Origin: an uncultured Candidatus Saccharibacteria bacterium
GTDB taxonomy: Bacteria; Patescibacteriota; UBA1384; 2-12-FULL-50-11
Reading direction: 5' to 3'
Length of the DNA: 46,517 bases
Assembly (NCBI GenBank): GCA_964358205.1
Contig: CAYHNZ010000004.1
Coordinates: 1 to 46,517 of the forward strand
Shown piece by piece: positions 12,067-40,939 of this stretch (the stretch's first letter is position 1; the number at the start of each line of letters is the position of its first letter). The position numbers were made by a program, and so were the translations under genes. The notes under the pieces were generated by a model, which was not told the DNA's origin, made no database searches, and saw only the letters and a list, made by a program, of their open reading frames with translations.

Positions 12067-13255
12067 CTTCTTCTTCGACGGCGAGTCGGTCAAACAAATC
12101 GTACTGCAGGGGTCGCTTGACATTAAGCCACTCCAACCCGCCGACAATAACAATCATCAATCCGGCAATGACCCAGGCCGGTAAGGTTAGATTGGTCGAG
12201 GCGAATTGCCACGAAGCCAACTTTTCACTCGAAAAAATCACCCAAGTTAGAAGCGGCCAGCTAGCCAGCATCAGGGTGTTGCCGATGATGGGAATAAACA
12301 TCAACATTGCGCCGATAATACCGATCGTCATCACCAGTGGCACGAGTGGCAAAACCAAAATATTAGACAGCGGGGAGATGACCGATAGTCGCTCAAAATG
12401 AGCGATAATCAGCGGTGCGGTCAGTAAAATTGCCGAGAAAGTTTCGGCCATAATCTGCCGAAGAATGACCGGTAATTTCGTTCGTATCAGCAGACGATTC
12501 AGATATGGCGAGAGGCGTACCAAGCCGTAAGTGGCGGCGACCGAAAGTTGGAAACCGACATCGAAAACTATTTTCGGCTCAAAAATCACCAAAACGGCGG
12601 CGGCGAAGATTAAGATGTTGACGGCGCGGCTCGGCCGGCCCAAGTATTTGGCTAGAATGACCGTCAGGGCCATCGCCGCCGCCCGCAAAATTGAGGCCGG
12701 GGCACCGGTGATAATGACAAAAAGCAGAATCAGCGCTGACGATACCCAAAGCGCTTTGCGGCCGATTAACGGCCAGAAGATACTGGTGGTGTTGGCGGTC
12801 AGAATTGTTAAGTTGTAACCAGAGACGGCGATAATATGGGTCAAGCCGACGGCGCGGAAGGTGTCGATCAGATCTTTATCGAGCTTGATCCGATTGCCCA
12901 GAAGGATGCCAGACATTAGCGAGCCGTGCGGCTCGGGTAAAGCCAGGGATATTTTGTCGACGATTAGATCCCGCAAATTACCAAGGACACCCGCCAGGTG
13001 GCCGATAACGGTTAGATTGAGCCAGACTTCGCCGGCGGTGACTTGCCATAAAAATGCCCCGAACGACAGACCGAAAAGAGTAAATGCGATGGTTTCGATC
13101 GGCTCGTCTTGGCCGCTCAATGCCACTATTAGCCAGATAGCCGCGACCCAGCCGATGATTAAGCGATCGATTTCAAAGTACGATCCGATCACCGCCCCAG
13201 CAATAATCGCCAAGCAAGTCAGGGCAAATTTTCGGGAAGGGGTCAGCCAGGCCAT
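12056..13255 (-). CDS. comEC: ComEC/Rec2 competence membrane channel domain
   Basis: GLTHIIAVSGYN, ASILRAAAM, DVGFQLSVAAT; multiple TM helices. Confidence 0.9.
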   Translation of the reverse strand: MAWLTPSRKFALTCLAIIAGAVIGSYFEIDRLIIGWVAAIWLIVALSGQDEPIETIAFTLFGLSFGAFLWQVTAGEVWLNLTVIGHLAGVLGNLRDLIVDKISLALPEPHGSLMSGILLGNRIKLDKDLIDTFRAVGLTHIIAVSGYNLTILTANTTSIFWPLIGRKALWVSSALILLFVIITGAPASILRAAAMALTVILAKYLGRPSRAVNILIFAAAVLVIFEPKIVFDVGFQLSVAATYGLVRLSPYLNRLLIRTKLPVILRQIMAETFSAILLTAPLIIAHFERLSVISPLSNILVLPLVPLVMTIGIIGAMLMFIPIIGNTLMLASWPLLTWVIFSSEKLASWQFASTNLTLPAWVIAGLMIVIVGGLEWLNVKRPLQYDLFDRLAVEEEDAL

Positions 13256-17664: not shown

Positions 17665-17746
17665 CCTGCCCCGCACTTTCACTTGATAGTGCGGTGGCCT
17701 GCCCCGCACAAAACTTTTCTCTGTTTACCTCTGTTTCTGTGCGGGG
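17665..17746. repeat. two tandem hairpins CCTGCCCCGCAC...GTGCGG at the left edge of the R-M block
   Basis: CCTGCCCCGCAC occurs twice, each closed by GTGCGG. Confidence 0.6.
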
Positions 17747-17771
17747 TTTAGCAGTACAATTTGGGCAAGTC

Positions 17772-19583
17772 ATGAAGATCAAAGAAATTCCAAAAATCGA
17801 TAGACCGCGAGAAAGATTTCTCAAAAAAGGCCCGGAAGCACTCTCAAAAAGTGATCTTTTGGCGATTTTGCTTGGAAGCGGGATAAGAGGCACGAATGTT
17901 CAAGAATTGTCTCAAAAAGTAATCAAAAAATTCGGTAAAAACTTTTTGACTATTACCGTTGACGATTTGCAAGAAGTCTCCGGAATCGGACAAGCAAAGG
18001 CGTTACAAATTGCGTCAGCAATTTCTTTGGTAAAGAGATTTTATGCAGACGATCAGACAAACGAAGTAAAAATCAGTAATTCTCAAGATGTGATCTCTTT
18101 AACTTACGATCTGAGAGATAAGAAAAAAGAGCATCTCGTTTGTCTGTATCTCAATGCAAGAAATATTCTTTTAAAAAAAGAAGTCATAAGTGTTGGACTT
18201 CTTGATAAGACGCTTCTGCACCCGAGAGAGATTTTTTATCCTGCAACGGAACTTAACGCCGCAAGTGTCATCCTTGTACACAATCATCCTTCTGGCGACT
18301 CAACACCAAGTGAGAAAGATGTTGAGATTGTTGAAAAAATCGCACAAGCAGGAGAAGTAATGGGAATTTCAGTTATTGATTTCGTTATCATCTCCGAAAA
18401 AGGAAATTATAGTTTTTATGAAAAGTTAAAAAATCAAGATAAAAGCTTTGGTTATGTTGCGGATGGAGTACAAGGAACGCTTTTTCACTTATTGGAAATT
18501 GAAAAACCGACCTATGAAGTCAGTGTACAAAAAATAGACAGACACTACTTCCAGCCACAAAAATCAAAAAGTGGGTATTTCCAGCTTCAAAACAGGAGAT
18601 ACCTGGGTAATAAATACAAATTGCTTGGATTTATCGAGGATATAATTTCTGAGAAATGTGGTTCAATCAATTCACTTTGCGATATTTTTGCGGGTACAGG
18701 CGTGGTTGGAGAAAGGTTCAACAGTCCAGAAATTAAAATTATTTCTAACGATTTTCTCTCGGCAAACTATGCTTGCTTGTGCGCATTTTTAGGAGTCGAT
18801 CGCGATATGCGACAAAGCATCTCTGAAAAGATATTATTTCTTAATAGTCTGTCGAATGACAAAGAAAATTATTTTTCCGAGCATTTTGGTGGAACATATT
18901 TCACAGAAGAAAATGCAATAAAGATTGGAGCAATACGCGCAGAGGTAGAAAAAATAGCAGAAAATGAGGATGAAAAAAATATTTTGATTTGTTCATTACT
19001 CTATGCTGTCGATAAGGTTGCTAATACTGTTGGCCATTACGATGCTTTTCGCAAACAATTAGACACGTTGCTACCTATGAGGCTTCTGATGCCCGATATT
19101 GATTATGCGCATAACACAGGTAATGAGATTTACAAAGAAGATGCGAATGATCTTATAAAAAAGATTTCTTTCGATGTTTTATATATTGATCCGCCATATA
19201 ACTCACGTCAATACTCGGACGCATACCACCTTTTGGAAAATCTTACCGAATGGAAGAAGCCCGAAGTTGTCGGTATCGGCAAAAAAATGGATCGCTCGCA
19301 TATCAAAAGTGATTACTGTCTTAAAGATGCGACGCGAGCATTTGCAGATTTAATCAAATACGCGGACTGCAAACACATCTTGCTTTCCTATAACAACACG
19401 GGGGATTCAAAAGACGGTCGTTCAAATGCACGAATGAATGATGATGAAATTTTACACATACTAAACGAGAAGGGCGAAGTCGAGATTTTCGAAAAGGATT
19501 ATAAGGCTTTTACAACAGGTAGGAGTAATGGAGAAGATAACGCGGAGCGCATCTTCTACTGTAAGGTAACAAAACAATTATGA
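17772..19583 (+). CDS. RadC (JAB/MPN) domain fused to a D12/FokI-type N6-adenine DNA methyltransferase
   Basis: N-half: DRPRERF..GPEALS..LLAILLGSG, HPREIF, HNHPSGD.TPS..D; C-half: RYLGNKYKL, DIFAGTG, YIDPPYN; no stop between; probable ATG 17772. Confidence 0.88.
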   Translation: MKIKEIPKIDRPRERFLKKGPEALSKSDLLAILLGSGIRGTNVQELSQKVIKKFGKNFLTITVDDLQEVSGIGQAKALQIASAISLVKRFYADDQTNEVKISNSQDVISLTYDLRDKKKEHLVCLYLNARNILLKKEVISVGLLDKTLLHPREIFYPATELNAASVILVHNHPSGDSTPSEKDVEIVEKIAQAGEVMGISVIDFVIISEKGNYSFYEKLKNQDKSFGYVADGVQGTLFHLLEIEKPTYEVSVQKIDRHYFQPQKSKSGYFQLQNRRYLGNKYKLLGFIEDIISEKCGSINSLCDIFAGTGVVGERFNSPEIKIISNDFLSANYACLCAFLGVDRDMRQSISEKILFLNSLSNDKENYFSEHFGGTYFTEENAIKIGAIRAEVEKIAENEDEKNILICSLLYAVDKVANTVGHYDAFRKQLDTLLPMRLLMPDIDYAHNTGNEIYKEDANDLIKKISFDVLYIDPPYNSRQYSDAYHLLENLTEWKKPEVVGIGKKMDRSHIKSDYCLKDATRAFADLIKYADCKHILLSYNNTGDSKDGRSNARMNDDEILHILNEKGEVEIFEKDYKAFTTGRSNGEDNAERIFYCKVTKQL

Positions 19584-21397
19584 AAAAACCTTGGTCAATC
19601 ACAACCACATTGCGAAACCCTGAGAGATTAAGAAATTTCTTGCAGGTTTTACGCAAACTTGAGGGCTTAGAGTGGAACCTTGAAAATCAAAAGAAATATC
19701 AGATCTTATTGATTCAAAATAGAATTTACGGCTACGGAAGTCGTCAGTTTTACAACGGACTTCCTCAAGAAAAGGTGGATTTGATTGATAATCAGTCAAA
19801 AGAAATTTCTTTTGAAGAAGCTGAGGAGATTTTCAATACAAAAAATTATGAAGATCCCGCAATGCGTGGAAGACAATCGATAAATCCTCTCAAGAAAATA
19901 GGACTGGTTTCAATAAAAGACAGTAAAGTATTCATAACTGATTTAGGAAAACTGTTCTTAAAAGATGACTTTGATTTTGGAGAAATCTTTTTTAGAAGTT
20001 TTTTGAAATGGCAGATACCGAACCCAGATAATCGAGATTACTCCACTAGCGGAGACTACGATATAAAACCATTTATTGGTACTTTGCATCTCATCAACAC
20101 TGTTAATGAAAAAGAAATTGCTCGAGGTAACAAGCCAAAAGGGATCAGTAAAAAAGAGTTCGCTCTTTTCGCACCAACTTTGGTGCATTATAAAGATATA
20201 AACGCACATGCTGAAAGAATCGTCGGTTTGCGAGAAGAATTACAAGGAAAGACAAAGCAAGAACAAAGAGAAATTTTTGATATTCACAAGAAGCAATTTG
20301 CCAGTGAGTTCTTGGGCGCTGATGATCAAGAAGAAATAGATGGTTTATTAAATAATCTGCAAGATTATGGAGATAACGCGATTCGCTACTTCCGCTTAAC
20401 TCGTTATATTCATATACGTGGTGGTGGTTTCTATATTGACTTAGAAGCAAGGAGATCAGTTGAAGTAGAATCACTGCTTGATTACGATAATGCACAATCG
20501 AAAGCATTTGGATCAAAGGAGGAATACCTTGCTTATATTTCTGACATCTCGCAACCTCAATTACCCTGGGAAACTTCAGAAAAATACTTTGAAATCATTG
20601 GAAAACTTATTGAAGAGATACGAGAGCATGAATGCGATCTACAAAAAGAACACACCGCAGTTAAAAAATATCAAGAAATGCAAAATGATGAGTTGAAAGA
20701 CTACATCGGAGAATTGCGAGCATATAGACGATCACTGCAAGACGAAGCAGATCACAGAAAATCTCAAACAGTTGAACAAATTGAAGCTTACATACAAAAT
20801 CTCGAAACTATTTTCGAATTTGATGATCGCCCGATACTACTTGAAAAATTATCGGCGCTCGGCTTGCATGCACTTAACGATGCATTGAAAATACAGCCGA
20901 ATTATCCCGTTGGTGATGATAACGAGCCGACCTTTACTGCGCCTGCGAACACTCCTGATATTGAATGCTTCTATGAAAACTTCAACGCAATTTGCGAAGT
21001 GACAATGCTGACTGGTCGAGATCAGTGGTACAACGAAGGGCAACCAGTCATGCGACACTTGAGAGATTTTGAAAATAAATATGAAAACAAGCCGTCCTAT
21101 TGTTTGTTTATCTCACCAAGATTACATAGAGATACAATGAATACTTTTTGGACTGCAATAAAATATGAATATGAAGGACGGCCACAAAAAATCATCCCCC
21201 TTTCTATCAATCATTTTGTTTTGATTTTAAAAGGTTTATTGCAGATGAAAGCAGAAAAGAGATTTTTGAAACACGAGGAAATTTCTCATCTTTACGAAAA
21301 AATACTGCATTCTTCGAATTCCTTCAACGACTCGGACGAATGGCTAAGGAGTATCCCAAGCACCATTTCATCATGGCAAGTAAGCCTTACTTCTTAA
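19580..21397 (+). CDS. AlwI-family type IIS restriction endonuclease
   Basis: KPWSITTTLRNPER N-terminus, FLKWQIPNP, catalytic PDIEC...CEVTM, EGQPVMRH; ATGA overlap with the MTase. Confidence 0.85.
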   Translation: MKKPWSITTTLRNPERLRNFLQVLRKLEGLEWNLENQKKYQILLIQNRIYGYGSRQFYNGLPQEKVDLIDNQSKEISFEEAEEIFNTKNYEDPAMRGRQSINPLKKIGLVSIKDSKVFITDLGKLFLKDDFDFGEIFFRSFLKWQIPNPDNRDYSTSGDYDIKPFIGTLHLINTVNEKEIARGNKPKGISKKEFALFAPTLVHYKDINAHAERIVGLREELQGKTKQEQREIFDIHKKQFASEFLGADDQEEIDGLLNNLQDYGDNAIRYFRLTRYIHIRGGGFYIDLEARRSVEVESLLDYDNAQSKAFGSKEEYLAYISDISQPQLPWETSEKYFEIIGKLIEEIREHECDLQKEHTAVKKYQEMQNDELKDYIGELRAYRRSLQDEADHRKSQTVEQIEAYIQNLETIFEFDDRPILLEKLSALGLHALNDALKIQPNYPVGDDNEPTFTAPANTPDIECFYENFNAICEVTMLTGRDQWYNEGQPVMRHLRDFENKYENKPSYCLFISPRLHRDTMNTFWTAIKYEYEGRPQKIIPLSINHFVLILKGLLQMKAEKRFLKHEEISHLYEKILHSSNSFNDSDEWLRSIPSTISSWQVSLTS

Positions 21398-38600: not shown

Positions 38601-38940
38601 TGGTAGGCCTGGCGGGAGTCGAACCCGCCGCACAGTGCTTAACATCCGGCAACAAGTTACCTTGTCCCCGCCAAAGGCGGGTTGTCGGCTGGACTATATC
38701 TTCGCCGCAGCGAAGATACTGACCGCTATCGGTGGGTATATCTTCGCCATTTCAGGCGCATCGCGTGTAGTCTCTGAGGGGAGTTTCTCCTCCGCTTAAA
38801 TCGGAATACTCTTCCCTGCTGATTGTCCTCGTCGTAAAGACGGTGGGAGATCCCAGCATATAGCGATGTTCACTTGATAAGTTTTGTTCCCCATCAAGGC
38901 TCCAAAGAAGGCACCTGCTCTACCGCTGAGCTACAGGCCT
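38601..38940 (-). tRNA. tRNA-Lys(UUU), split by an intron (exons 38940-38908 and 38642-38601)
   Basis: Acceptor AGGCCUG/CAGGCCU-A-CCA, D arm GCUC/GAGC, anticodon stem GGUGC/GCACU, T arm GCGGG-UUCGACU-CCCGC; joined loop CU-UUU-AA; mature length 75 nt. Confidence 0.85.
38643..38907 (-). ncRNA. group I self-splicing intron, 265 nt, no internal ORF
   Basis: P AUGCUGGGA (38851-38859), Q AAUCAGCAGG (38815-38824), R UCAGAGACUACA (38766-38777), S AAGAUAUAGUCC (38691-38702); P3 CAUCGC/GCGAUG; P1 with U34-G wobble; terminal G. Confidence 0.92.
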
Positions 38941-39081
38941 AAATTTCAAAATGTACGAACACAACAGACTAATTTTAGCATATGATTAGATAAGAATGAA
39001 GCCGGATACGCCTTCGATGTCGAGCCTTTTATTGGCGAGAGCTATGAGCAGAGCGATTATTTGCTCACTAACGTTCGCAAA

Positions 39082-39927
39082 ATGAAGCCACGACACCCAT
39101 TTGAGCTTAAAGCAAAAGTCATAAAACGACGGCAAGAAGGAGAATCACTCAAACGGCTGGTTGTTGAATTTGGGTTGCCCAAAAGTACTGTTCAGGGCTG
39201 GATAGCGAATATTCTATTGTCCCAACGCGCCAGAAACCGAATAGACGAACGAGCTAGACAACAAGGGAGAAGTATCCGTAGTAATCGGCGACTAGTCTTG
39301 CCTCCGACCATATATTCGACACCGTTCTCACCCGATTTAGTTAGATTTTTCGCCCATTGTTTATTCGATGGCAGTATTCGTCACGATCAGGCCATCTACT
39401 ACTCTAGTCATTCAACTCTAGCTCAAAAATTCGCCGAGAATGGTCAAATACTGTTTGGCCTGAAACCAAGATGGGGGAGAAACAAGGATGGAGTCTTGCG
39501 AGTCCACTTCTTTTCCAGAAATTTGGCAGAATTCCTACTGGCTCGAAAAGAGATGTTGTTCAAAAACATTGGGAGAATGGAACGAGCCCATCAATTAGAA
39601 TTTCTTAAAGCGTTCTTTAACGACGAGGGATCTGTTACTTTCCGAGCAGAAACTGGCAAGAAGGCAGTCAGGGGCTATCAAAAGAATGTTAAAATCCTTG
39701 AGATCGTCGTTTCTCTGCTCCATGGTTTAGGCATTGATTCAAAACTCGAAAGCTTGAATCACTCGCCCGAAATAGCAATCCGAGGCCGAGAAAACATTAA
39801 AAAATTCGCTCAAGTTATTAACTTTGATGCTGGTGTTTCGTTTCTGGCGACGAGGAAAAATAGCTACTACTCAAAGCCAATTGAAAAACGAGTTGTTTTG
39901 CGACAGCTGTTAGCCTCTTATCGCTAG
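39082..39927 (+). CDS. free-standing LAGLIDADG-family endonuclease with N-terminal HTH
   Basis: HTH GESLKRLVVEFGLPKSTVQGW; two LAGLIDADG-like helices FFAHCLFDGS and FLKAFFNDEGS. Confidence 0.85.
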   Translation: MKPRHPFELKAKVIKRRQEGESLKRLVVEFGLPKSTVQGWIANILLSQRARNRIDERARQQGRSIRSNRRLVLPPTIYSTPFSPDLVRFFAHCLFDGSIRHDQAIYYSSHSTLAQKFAENGQILFGLKPRWGRNKDGVLRVHFFSRNLAEFLLARKEMLFKNIGRMERAHQLEFLKAFFNDEGSVTFRAETGKKAVRGYQKNVKILEIVVSLLHGLGIDSKLESLNHSPEIAIRGRENIKKFAQVINFDAGVSFLATRKNSYYSKPIEKRVVLRQLLASYR

Positions 39928-40853
39928 CTTTTGGGCTTCTGTAAAAAGTTAAATGCGCTGGTGGCGGCGACCGAACCCATGGCGGCGGCGGTAATGTCTT
40001 GTTTAAAATGCCCAAAGAAGTTGGTGGCGTCGCCGGCGGCAAAGACGCCTTCGATATTCGTTTCCATCATATTGTTGACGGCCACGTAGCCGTGTGGGTC
40101 GAGCTTTACTCCTAGCGATTCGACCAGCTCCATCTCCGGCACCGCACCGATTTCGACAAACAGGCCATCAAGTTTCAGCTCCTGGTCGTTCGCAAGTTTG
40201 ACGCCTGTTAAACGGGAGTCACCCAAAATCTCCTTGACTTGGGAGTTTGGCAAGACTGCCACTTTCGTACCAAGATACGGCTTGAGGCGTTCGCCGTTAA
40301 TTGGCTCGGGGTGAAGTCCATCTCCCCGGACGATCATATATATTTTTTCGGCGTACTGGACGGCCAAAAGCGCTCCCTTAACTGAAGCGTCACCGCTGCC
40401 AACAATAGCAATGGTTTTACCTTTATAGAGCGGTCCGTCGCAGGTGGTGCAATAATGGACGCCCTTGCCTTGAGAAAAGTCGTCTTCTTTCGGTAGGTTG
40501 AGCTTGCGCCTGGCGGCACCGTGAGTAAAGATCACTGCTTTAGCGAGGTATTCTTCGCCCGACTCGCCAGTCAACTTAAAGCCTCCGTCTCCGCCAGCTG
40601 GCGGACTAGTAATCTTTTCAATTTTATCGGCAATGACTTTAGCGCCCAGCGCTTCAACCTGTTCCTTGACCTTGATAATTAAATCGTAACCATCGATGGC
40701 TTTGAAACCTGGGTAGTTTTCAATCGTCCAGGCTGTCGAAGTGGCCCCTCCGAGCTCGGCACCGATAACTAATGTCGACAGCTCGTAGCGAGCCGTATAA
40801 AGGGCGGCACTAAGTCCGGCCATCCCAGAACCGATAATTATGACATCTGTCAT
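39924..40853 (-). CDS. trxB: thioredoxin-disulfide reductase
   Basis: IIGSGMAG, IENYPGF, YCTTCDG, VGSGD, GVFAAGD. Confidence 0.9.
   Translation of the reverse strand: MTDVIIIGSGMAGLSAALYTARYELSTLVIGAELGGATSTAWTIENYPGFKAIDGYDLIIKVKEQVEALGAKVIADKIEKITSPPAGGDGGFKLTGESGEEYLAKAVIFTHGAARRKLNLPKEDDFSQGKGVHYCTTCDGPLYKGKTIAIVGSGDASVKGALLAVQYAEKIYMIVRGDGLHPEPINGERLKPYLGTKVAVLPNSQVKEILGDSRLTGVKLANDQELKLDGLFVEIGAVPEMELVESLGVKLDPHGYVAVNNMMETNIEGVFAAGDATNFFGHFKQDITAAAMGSVAATSAFNFLQKPKS
40590..40605. repeat. intragenic 16-bp palindrome (copy 3) in trxB
   Basis: TCCGCCAGCTGGCGGA read as S-PPAGG-D. Confidence 0.9.
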
Positions 40854-40939
40854 GTCGACCCAGCATACTCATAAATTTTGCTTGCCAGCAAGCTGTCACT
40901 AGCGTCAAGCCAACTCTTTGTTACAATTAGCTCATATCT

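Follow-up and report, generated by a model that had tools for sequence, protein, structure and literature searches.

Within the 46,517-nt stretch of DNA analysed here (the window), which is contig C4 of genome G000 (862 kb, 43 contigs) from an uncultured groundwater Candidatus Saccharibacteria bacterium, a split tRNA-Lys(UUU) gene stands beside a free-standing gene for a LAGLIDADG protein with an N-terminal helix-turn-helix (HTH) (39082-39927, plus strand, 281 amino acids, divergent from the tRNA). Our analysis indicates that this is probably a homing-endonuclease gene dedicated to the tRNA-Lys(UUU) locus, which would drive the tRNA allele linked to it and for which a group I intron is a frequent partner. 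The enzyme would cut within the tRNA gene, or immediately next to it, at tRNA-Lys(UUU) loci devoid of the LAGLIDADG gene, and repair from a gene-bearing copy (e.g., one taken up by transformation) would then install the gene along with the adjacent tRNA allele. The spreading unit would be the nuclease gene plus the linked allele, with the intron carried along where the allele has one. Resistance of the linked allele, which this mechanism demands, could come from an anticodon-loop intron or from an unusual anticodon stem. The window holds a DNA-uptake gene, recognized by a ComEC-type Competence domain (12137-12907, minus strand, 4e-47).

The association with a single tRNA gene was established in a survey of the protein family. 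We gathered 41 loci from species-representative genomes and 80 from metagenomes, together with the window, L055 and L057; 122 loci were counted, in 98 clusters at 97% amino acid identity. All counts exclude the two archaeal loci L051 and L052, where identity is 27-32% over 137 residues and no tRNA was found. A tRNA-Lys(UUU) gene neighbours the LAGLIDADG gene in 93 of the 94 clusters with enough flanking sequence, L153 being the exception and four clusters having too little flank. As a baseline, 27 of the 538 long open frames of G000 (5%) lie within 150 nt of any tRNA, and the gene is tied to tRNA-Lys(UUU) far beyond chance. The family occurs at this locus in Candidate Phyla Radiation (CPR)/Patescibacteria and in some Omnitrophota. 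Since the adjoining tRNA was the only match to a tRNA-Lys(UUU) pattern in all five gene-bearing genomes checked, it is the host's own gene and not cargo.

The arrangement of gene and tRNA follows the protein phylogeny. An intron-less tRNA is followed by the gene on the same strand in 79 clusters, and an intron-bearing tRNA precedes the gene in two (L013, L014). Six clusters of Omnitrophota-type loci (L020, L045, L048, L050, L149, L154) have the gene first and then a tRNA with an intron, and divergent pairs contain an intron in four clusters (the window, L057 of genome G027, L094 and L095) and lack it in two (L096, L099). In a tree of proteins built without P0005, L044 and L048, which are too short, every arrangement makes up a group of its own, and loci of the abutting type fall in a single large clade. 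The junctions between tRNA and gene are precise and conserved; the start codon lies 0-3 nt past the tRNA end called by ARAGORN in 57 of the 79 same-strand intron-less clusters (...GGGCGCAC|ATGAA...). A 'tRNA-Stop(tta)' called by ARAGORN beside the gene in L018/L112 was set aside as most likely a mis-call, its arm GCTCG CTTTTAA CGAGA being that of L021, which was called Lys.

Judged from its distribution and genomic context, the gene behaves like a mobile element, with sporadic occurrence, an empty site, cassettes more alike than their flanks, and decayed copies. Full-length genes were seen in 6 of 61 genomes sampled from the window's class (the five other species of the window's genus have none) and in 7 of the 81 genomes around the Kaiserbacteria genome G061. 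The stretch from a GGDEF gene through tRNA-Lys to trxB is syntenic across the window's genus, and G004 offers a clean gene-less site there, with the trxB stop, a 51-nt spacer and then an intron-bearing tRNA-Lys. In G002, also of this genus, the allele with the intron lies at the end of a contig, and G001, G003 and G005 have an intron-less tRNA-Lys of clearly different sequence (stem TCTCC/GGAGA versus GGTGC/GCACT). Recent transfer as a unit is indicated by L034 and L038, where tRNA and gene are 99-100% identical and the downstream flank 76-90%, and by L146 and L148, which are 97-100% identical from -377 to about +800 and less so farther upstream. For the sequence after the gene, the alignment of the latter two supports no more than an adjacent indel; the notion that L146/L148 and L103/L105 represent one cassette in unrelated downstream contexts was dropped, as L146 has about 1.3 kb of extra sequence, after which homology resumes. 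Decay is seen in L044, with an in-frame stop, and in G058, where the gene is split over two frames. Finally, about 20 codons of the gene's 5' end directly follow an intron-bearing tRNA-Lys(UUU) (locus 1479-1804) in G040 (L184, contig G040:C10), a remnant that looks like a deleted gene copy that left its intron behind.

Other gene-less loci were recorded. None of the contigs aligned at the window locus bridged a gene-less or intron-less form. In runs X1 and X2, a relative 7-10 times more abundant and about 88% identical in trxB (window 39948-40855) is represented by a contig that departs at 39948 into unlike sequence; because it leaves the window just past the end of trxB, this relative lacks the cassette in the same place. 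The gene-less locus L084 (G066:C10) and the locus L015 of G061 have the same flanking genes and the tRNA-Lys(UUU) in opposite orientation, and the anticodon stem of L084, AGCGAC, is that of two gene-bearing genomes, G079 and G081.

Comparison with G004 delimits the cassette in the window to about 970 bp (38957-39927), between the trxB stop and the tRNA leader. The leader common to both genomes (AAAWTYCAAAATGTAC, 38941-38956) is followed by divergent sequence, the insertion starting at 38957, 16 nt upstream of the tRNA. The right border is formed by the convergent gene for a trxB-like thioredoxin reductase (39924-40853, minus strand, Pyr_redox_2 3e-40), and the stop codon of the LAGLIDADG gene (TAG, 39925-39927) overlaps that of trxB (CTA, 39924-39926, opposite strand) by two bases. 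At the left end, a 39-nt block (38957-38995) contains an extended -10-like element, TGnTAAAAT, at 38980-38972 (minus strand). L096, with a protein of 57% identity, has a near-identical block, L094 and L095 have a similar one, and G004 has its own TTGAGC-N17-TATAAT at this place. The cassette appears to bring a promoter (TGcTAAAAT) for the tRNA, a role assigned by eye. A simple sigma-70 scan listed no promoter in the 141-nt spacer that separates the gene's ATG from the tRNA 5' end, and a look-up of sequencing runs gave no RNA run containing this DNA.

Within this spacer, 86 nt (39005-39090) bordered by the 8-nt repeat ATGAAGCC form an insertion that parts the ancestral start (38996) from the present one and creates an upstream open reading frame (ORF) of 29 codons (38996-39085, plus strand), the stop of which overlaps the ATG of the gene (ATGA). 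The corresponding distance from tRNA to ATG is 51-55 nt in L094-L096. The insertion is strain-specific: related contigs of runs X5 and X9, from two other studies, lack it and join 39004 to 39091; its interpretation as a small repeat element was dropped, as the genome holds no other copy. By pushing the start away from the cassette promoter and creating the upstream ORF, the insertion raises the prospect that the window copy, having arrived by ordinary recombination, is an inactive relic that no longer does anything, in the manner of the decayed copies elsewhere. However, the frame is intact and retains all invariant residues, homologues of 53-87% identity are full length, and the ATGA overlap may allow coupled translation of the upstream ORF and the gene. 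We therefore regard a relic as very improbable.

The predicted protein bears every sequence and fold feature expected of an active LAGLIDADG endonuclease. The ORF spans 39061 (TTG) or 39082 (ATG) to 39927, and homologues begin at the ATG. It encodes an HTH (about 39100-39204) and two LAGLIDADG motifs, the first (39343-39372, ...CLFDG) containing D96 (39367-39369) and the second (39601-39630, ...FFNDEG) E182 (39625-39627), all on the plus strand; D96 and E182 are invariant in alignments of 11 and of 35 sequences. Pfam LAGLIDADG_3 matches with 2e-8 (34.8 bits versus a cut-off of 22.5), and all Pfam HTH matches fall slightly under their cut-offs (HTH_28, 24.0 bits versus 25). The AlphaFold2 model (predicted local distance difference test 92.6, predicted template-modelling score 0.77) has three short N-terminal helices, and for its core Foldseek ranked I-DmoI first (E 7e-9, template-modelling (TM) score 0.73-0.77 on target). 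Profile matches in the PDB were an intein endonuclease (8e-6) and I-DmoI (4e-3). The model thus predicts a single-chain, two-domain LAGLIDADG protein, in which two alpha-beta-beta-alpha-beta-beta-alpha domains pack via the motif helices. The names attached to homologues, such as a 'Candidatus Berkelbacteria' protein (82% identical), indicate CPR/Patescibacteria, and NCBIfam, PADLOC and PHROGs returned no informative family for the window protein. The family is widespread, with 95 representative clusters at E <=1e-30 and 493 at 1e-10, and has so far carried the label 'hypothetical protein'.

A combination of HTH and LAGLIDADG scaffold is also found in the regulator WhiA, in which an N-terminal scaffold without catalytic acids is followed by a C-terminal HTH. 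By analogy, the protein could be a domesticated DNA-binding regulator of tRNA-Lys and of its own expression, which would attach to the tRNA gene or to the promoter region common to both genes without cutting. WhiA is indeed a lower-ranked fold match (E 3e-6 to 7e-6, TM 0.44-0.58), and the WhiA models of Pfam gave no match in the window protein. The short divergent spacer common to gene and tRNA, the tRNA promoter apparently supplied by the cassette and the precise, conserved tRNA junctions would all suit a regulator. Unlike WhiA, however, the window protein has its HTH at the N-terminus and retains D96 and E182, and a regulatory role squares poorly with the invariance of both catalytic acids in the aligned sequences. 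The patchy distribution, the broken copies, the near-identical cassettes within diverged flanks and the absence of the gene from most relatives that have this tRNA also argue against it. We consider such a regulator improbable.

The partner of the gene in the window, the tRNA-Lys(UUU) gene (38940-38601, minus strand), is interrupted by a 265-nt group I intron without ORF. The 5' exon (38908-38940, 33 nt, ending ...GCCUU) was read by eye; it is followed by the intron (38643-38907, ending ...GGATG) and by a 3' exon (38601-38642) that starts UUAAGC... and encodes the CCA. Because the anticodon loop reads CUU|UUAA (the bar marks the intron site), the intron is placed after U34 of the anticodon. 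ARAGORN found no tRNA in the window at default settings and Rfam gave no match in it at gathering scores, because the intron masks the tRNA and itself scores under the curated cut-off. When an E-value threshold was applied to 901 nt, the group I intron model RF00028 matched 38678-38914 (minus strand) with 39.7 bits (E 1.7e-8; gathering score 50), and it reached 59 and 55 bits in the homologous introns of L057 and L013. The exons, joined by script, form a 75-nt tRNA that ARAGORN calls Lys(ttt). The rest of the genome holds 40 tRNAs, Lys(CTT) among them and no further Lys(TTT), so the window gene is the sole tRNA-Lys(UUU) of the genome. Note that ARAGORN amino-acid labels are unreliable for split tRNAs (that of the window was labelled 'Asn(gtt)'), and the Lys, Phe and Asn identities of the split tRNAs named here were read by eye.

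No ORF of at least 40 amino acids exists on the sense strand of the intron. Its predicted structure was examined in an alignment of eight homologous introns from eight genomes, in which 35 of the 71 predicted pairs show compensatory changes; the tRNA stems also co-vary. In P1, the exon CUU and the first base of the intron pair with (G/A)GAG, a U.G lying at the splice site in all eight introns, and the terminal base of the intron is G. A conserved paired core with covariation, the splice-site U.G and the terminal G are, as far as sequence can tell, the features of a group I intron. The introns of the window, L094 and L095 have an optional hairpin of 68 nt (38670-38737, minus strand), which partly duplicates the core segment GCGAAGATAT; those of G004, G002, L057, L013 and L014 lack it, and one contig of run X9 skips it. 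Small tRNA-gene introns of this kind are known to self-splice. In sum, the layout given in an earlier note on this DNA was recovered throughout: a split tRNA-Lys with an ORF-less intron, a divergent gene some 140 bp from the tRNA 5' end, a two-motif LAGLIDADG protein with an N-terminal HTH (slightly below cut-off in Pfam, modelled as three helices), a stop codon overlapping that of trxB, and a comEC gene.

The same note had gone further and proposed that gene and intron make up a two-part homing system. Across the family, an intron accompanies the gene in 12 of the 93 neighbouring tRNAs; the other 81 are intact and intron-less. L096 (= P0006, intact, 282 amino acids) adjoins an intron-less tRNA whose anticodon arm, ACGGA CUUUUAA UCCGU, is that of the exons of the intron-bearing L094 and L095, and L055 (G050) is intron-less inside the clade of the intron-bearing L013 and L014. 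Consequently, the intron is not required. Within the window's class, the two nevertheless go together. Five of the six gene-bearing genomes have the intron (G000, G027, G044, G049, G058; not G050), compared with 4 of 51 gene-less ones (G002, G004, G029, G040), where the 47 intron-less calls are sequence pattern matches and not individual foldings, and four further genomes were undecided. Fisher tests gave p 1.7e-4, or 1.1e-3 with the four undecided genomes counted contrary, values that overstate the link because the genomes are kin. The co-occurrence covers five families, three arrangements and two unrelated-looking intron types, one window-like and the other tRNA-Leu-like (84-102 bits). What stood of the proposal was therefore the endonuclease-like protein, the mobile-like gene, its link to tRNA-Lys(UUU) and the gene-intron association in the class, which did not extend across the family; what did not stand was the intron as a necessary second part, in view of the 81 intron-less neighbours, L096 and G004. 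Homologues do occur beside intron-less tRNA-Lys genes, yet not without correlation between gene and intron.

Introns are uncommon around G061, where 75 of 81 genomes fit the pattern without intron, and the anticodon stems differ instead: the eight commonest stems are found in 52 of the 68 gene-less genomes and in none of the seven gene-bearing ones. The class co-occurrence and these rare stems are compatible with a target inside the tRNA gene and a linked allele that resists cutting; they are also compatible with simple co-transfer of the neighbouring allele.

A strict version of the favoured mechanism is collaborative homing, in which the enzyme would cut at the intron site of the anticodon loop, the intron would confer immunity, and both would spread together. 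Two phages provide a precedent, with an endonuclease and an ORF-less intron converging on one site, as outlined in PMC3984707. The class co-occurrence would follow from it, and gene-linked alleles with introns have common stems that are intron-less in gene-less genomes such as G017, G022, G023, G034, G035 and G055; intron-less gene-linked alleles around G061 have rare stems. Moreover, the family keeps to Lys(UUU) on either side of the tRNA, and the anticodon loop is the sole Lys(UUU)-specific constant. This is however difficult to reconcile with L096, intact beside an intron-less tRNA with the very anticodon arm of L094 and L095, with the intron-less L055 in its intron-bearing clade, with the occurrence in one genus of both an intron without the gene (G029) and a gene without the intron (G050), and with the 81 intron-less members. 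Since G004 and G002 have the intron and no gene, the lineage of the window had the intron first, so entry of the gene at this locus cannot have used an intron-less target and homing of this kind could not have placed it. Hitch-hiking of the intron on gene conversion accounts equally well for the co-occurrence. We think that the strict version is rather unlikely, although the intron as giver of immunity is possible.

LAGLIDADG maturases also exist, and the protein could help the ORF-less intron to fold and splice in trans, as the earlier note had suggested. Its gene adjoins an intron-bearing gene and co-occurs with the intron in the class. However, a maturase fits poorly with a free-standing gene that has no intron alongside in 81 of 93 members and keeps its catalytic acids, with introns that persist in the absence of the gene (G004, G002, G029), with two other tRNA introns of the same genome (Phe, Asn) that have no such neighbour, and with the known self-splicing of small tRNA-gene introns. 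We give this explanation almost no credence.

Several points weigh against the reading of a homing-endonuclease gene dedicated to tRNA-Lys(UUU) and must be set beside the evidence above. The predominance of intron-less neighbours leaves self-immunity in 81 of the 93 members unexplained, unless insertion of the gene splits the target site or the allele matters. The intron of the window's genus was already there without the gene in G004 and G002. The abutting clade, with a start codon 0-3 nt from the tRNA in 57 of 79 clusters, could have its origin in long vertical co-expression or in some function for the host. As tRNA loci are frequent break points of metagenome bins, some 'absent' calls may be assembly gaps. 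To these must be added the pattern-based intron-less calls and the kinship of the genomes compared.

The system has parallels among known endonucleases. As a single chain with two LAGLIDADG domains and Asp or Glu at the motif ends, the predicted protein resembles I-DmoI, PI-PfuI and Tli VMA, which differ in being intron- or intein-encoded, in lacking an N-terminal HTH, and in sharing about 20% identity with it. A precedent for the presumed target is an intron-encoded homing enzyme that acts on a tRNA anticodon region holding a group I intron; that enzyme is not known to be of the LAGLIDADG type, and the window gene, unlike it, is free-standing. In phages, collaborative homing pairs a free-standing endonuclease with a neighbouring ORF-less group I intron, e.g., F-CphI beside psbA of cyanophage S-PM2, as described in portions of PMC3984707 and PMC6083498. 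The window likewise has an ORF-less intron and a free-standing endonuclease gene side by side, but on a bacterial chromosome, with a tRNA as host gene and most family members intron-less, and F-CphI has an Endo VII-type motif (PMC6083498) where the window enzyme has LAGLIDADG with an HTH. T4 mobE (trans homing of the defunct I-TevIII intron) is a free-standing endonuclease gene that mobilises flanking DNA and a neighbouring intron by co-conversion, which corresponds to the hitch-hiking favoured here, although mobE itself is HNH and belongs to the phage nrd locus, according to PMC2790892. T4 SegB, a free-standing GIY-YIG endonuclease amid phage tRNA genes, drives preferential inheritance of the tRNA region (as set out in PMC2330249); it differs from the window gene in nuclease family, in acting during phage co-infection and not in a cellular genome, and in not having one clade per tRNA. 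LAGLIDADG genes inside rRNA introns of CPR bacteria have been described (PMC11270868, PMC8172020, in the portions consulted). These share phylum and nuclease superfamily with the window gene and are present in G000 too, but they are intron-encoded in rRNA genes; a term search of the accessible text of PMC11270868 found none of the words tRNA, free-standing and helix-turn-helix. Our literature search, outside which most subscription journals lie, found no account of LAGLIDADG genes flanking tRNA genes in CPR bacteria. Known cooperation between a free-standing endonuclease and an ORF-less intron concerns a few phage genes; in the present loci, an essential cellular tRNA gene of bacteria with very small genomes may be subject to similar logic. 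The loci also provide a natural series for comparison, with neither element, the intron only, the gene only, both, or a decayed gene.

The two-motif gene has single-motif relatives at other tRNA genes. Five HTH-LAGLIDADG-like genes with one motif are present in G000 (C5:9510-10199, C5:10597-10926, C15:2630-3379, C16:10355-11149 and C19:2474-3127, all on the minus strand), each within about 100 nt of a tRNA gene, and the tRNAs concerned are Trp, Thr(GGU), Lys(CUU), Val(GAC) and Ala(GGC). Comparison with the window protein shows a relationship across the HTH and first domain (hhalign probability 98.7%), and the single-motif proteins have an invariant Glu-Gly; a search of NCBIfam, PADLOC and PHROGs with a single-motif paralogue matched HTH-type models only. 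In the 61-genome sample, the family gave 57 matches in 26 genomes. A tRNA lies within 150 nt of 53 of the 55 genes examined, four of which have in-frame stops, and in most the stop codon lies directly against the tRNA 5' end or overlaps it. The single-motif family flanks at least 15 other tRNA genes. Its neighbours were called by ARAGORN as Trp, Lys(CUU), Arg, Val, Gly, Ile, Ala, Gln, Thr, Tyr, Pro and Ser, and those with an intron are Phe, Ser-like tRNAs and, by eye, Asn. The copy beside Lys(CUU) is 100% identical between G000 and G005 over about 600 nt, within flanks of 70-86%.

These patterns lead us to a tentative extension. Free-standing HTH-LAGLIDADG homing endonucleases might form a superfamily in CPR bacteria whose clades have specialized, each on a single tRNA gene, the two-motif proteins to Lys(UUU) and the single-motif ones to Phe and the tRNAs of the ARAGORN list above. 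The enzymes would cut the tRNA genes of naive genomes, plausibly at the inverted-repeat anticodon arm, and drive resistant alleles by transformation; introns and odd stems would be two forms of resistance, which would explain the sites of bacterial tRNA introns. If the enzymes do cut tRNA genes, whole tRNA alleles would move horizontally as drive units, anticodon-loop introns in bacteria would have a testable origin, and a collection of compact natural nucleases, with long targets and an additional HTH, would be at hand. For annotation, such loci account for missing tRNAs and for contig breaks at tRNA loci in CPR bins.

Further introns and a likely restriction-modification pair accompany these genes in the genome. 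Two more ORF-less group I introns lie in tRNA-Phe(GAA) (G000:C29:8683-8977, minus strand) and tRNA-Asn(GUU) (C7:25917-26269, minus strand), both read by eye; no LAGLIDADG gene adjoins either, and relatives have one beside an intron-bearing tRNA-Phe. These two split genes are the remaining tRNAs missed by ARAGORN in G000. Group I intron matches beside LAGLIDADG frames occur at the 3' end of the 16S and in the 23S rRNA gene, and a LAGLIDADG_3 match lies within a 1064-amino-acid frame of intein-like appearance (the set G000:C26:258-828, C32:8245-9029 and C18:16741-17181). In the window itself (17694-21397), an AlwI-type restriction endonuclease comes after a fusion of a RadC-like domain with a D12-class adenine methyltransferase, and the two look like a restriction-modification pair.

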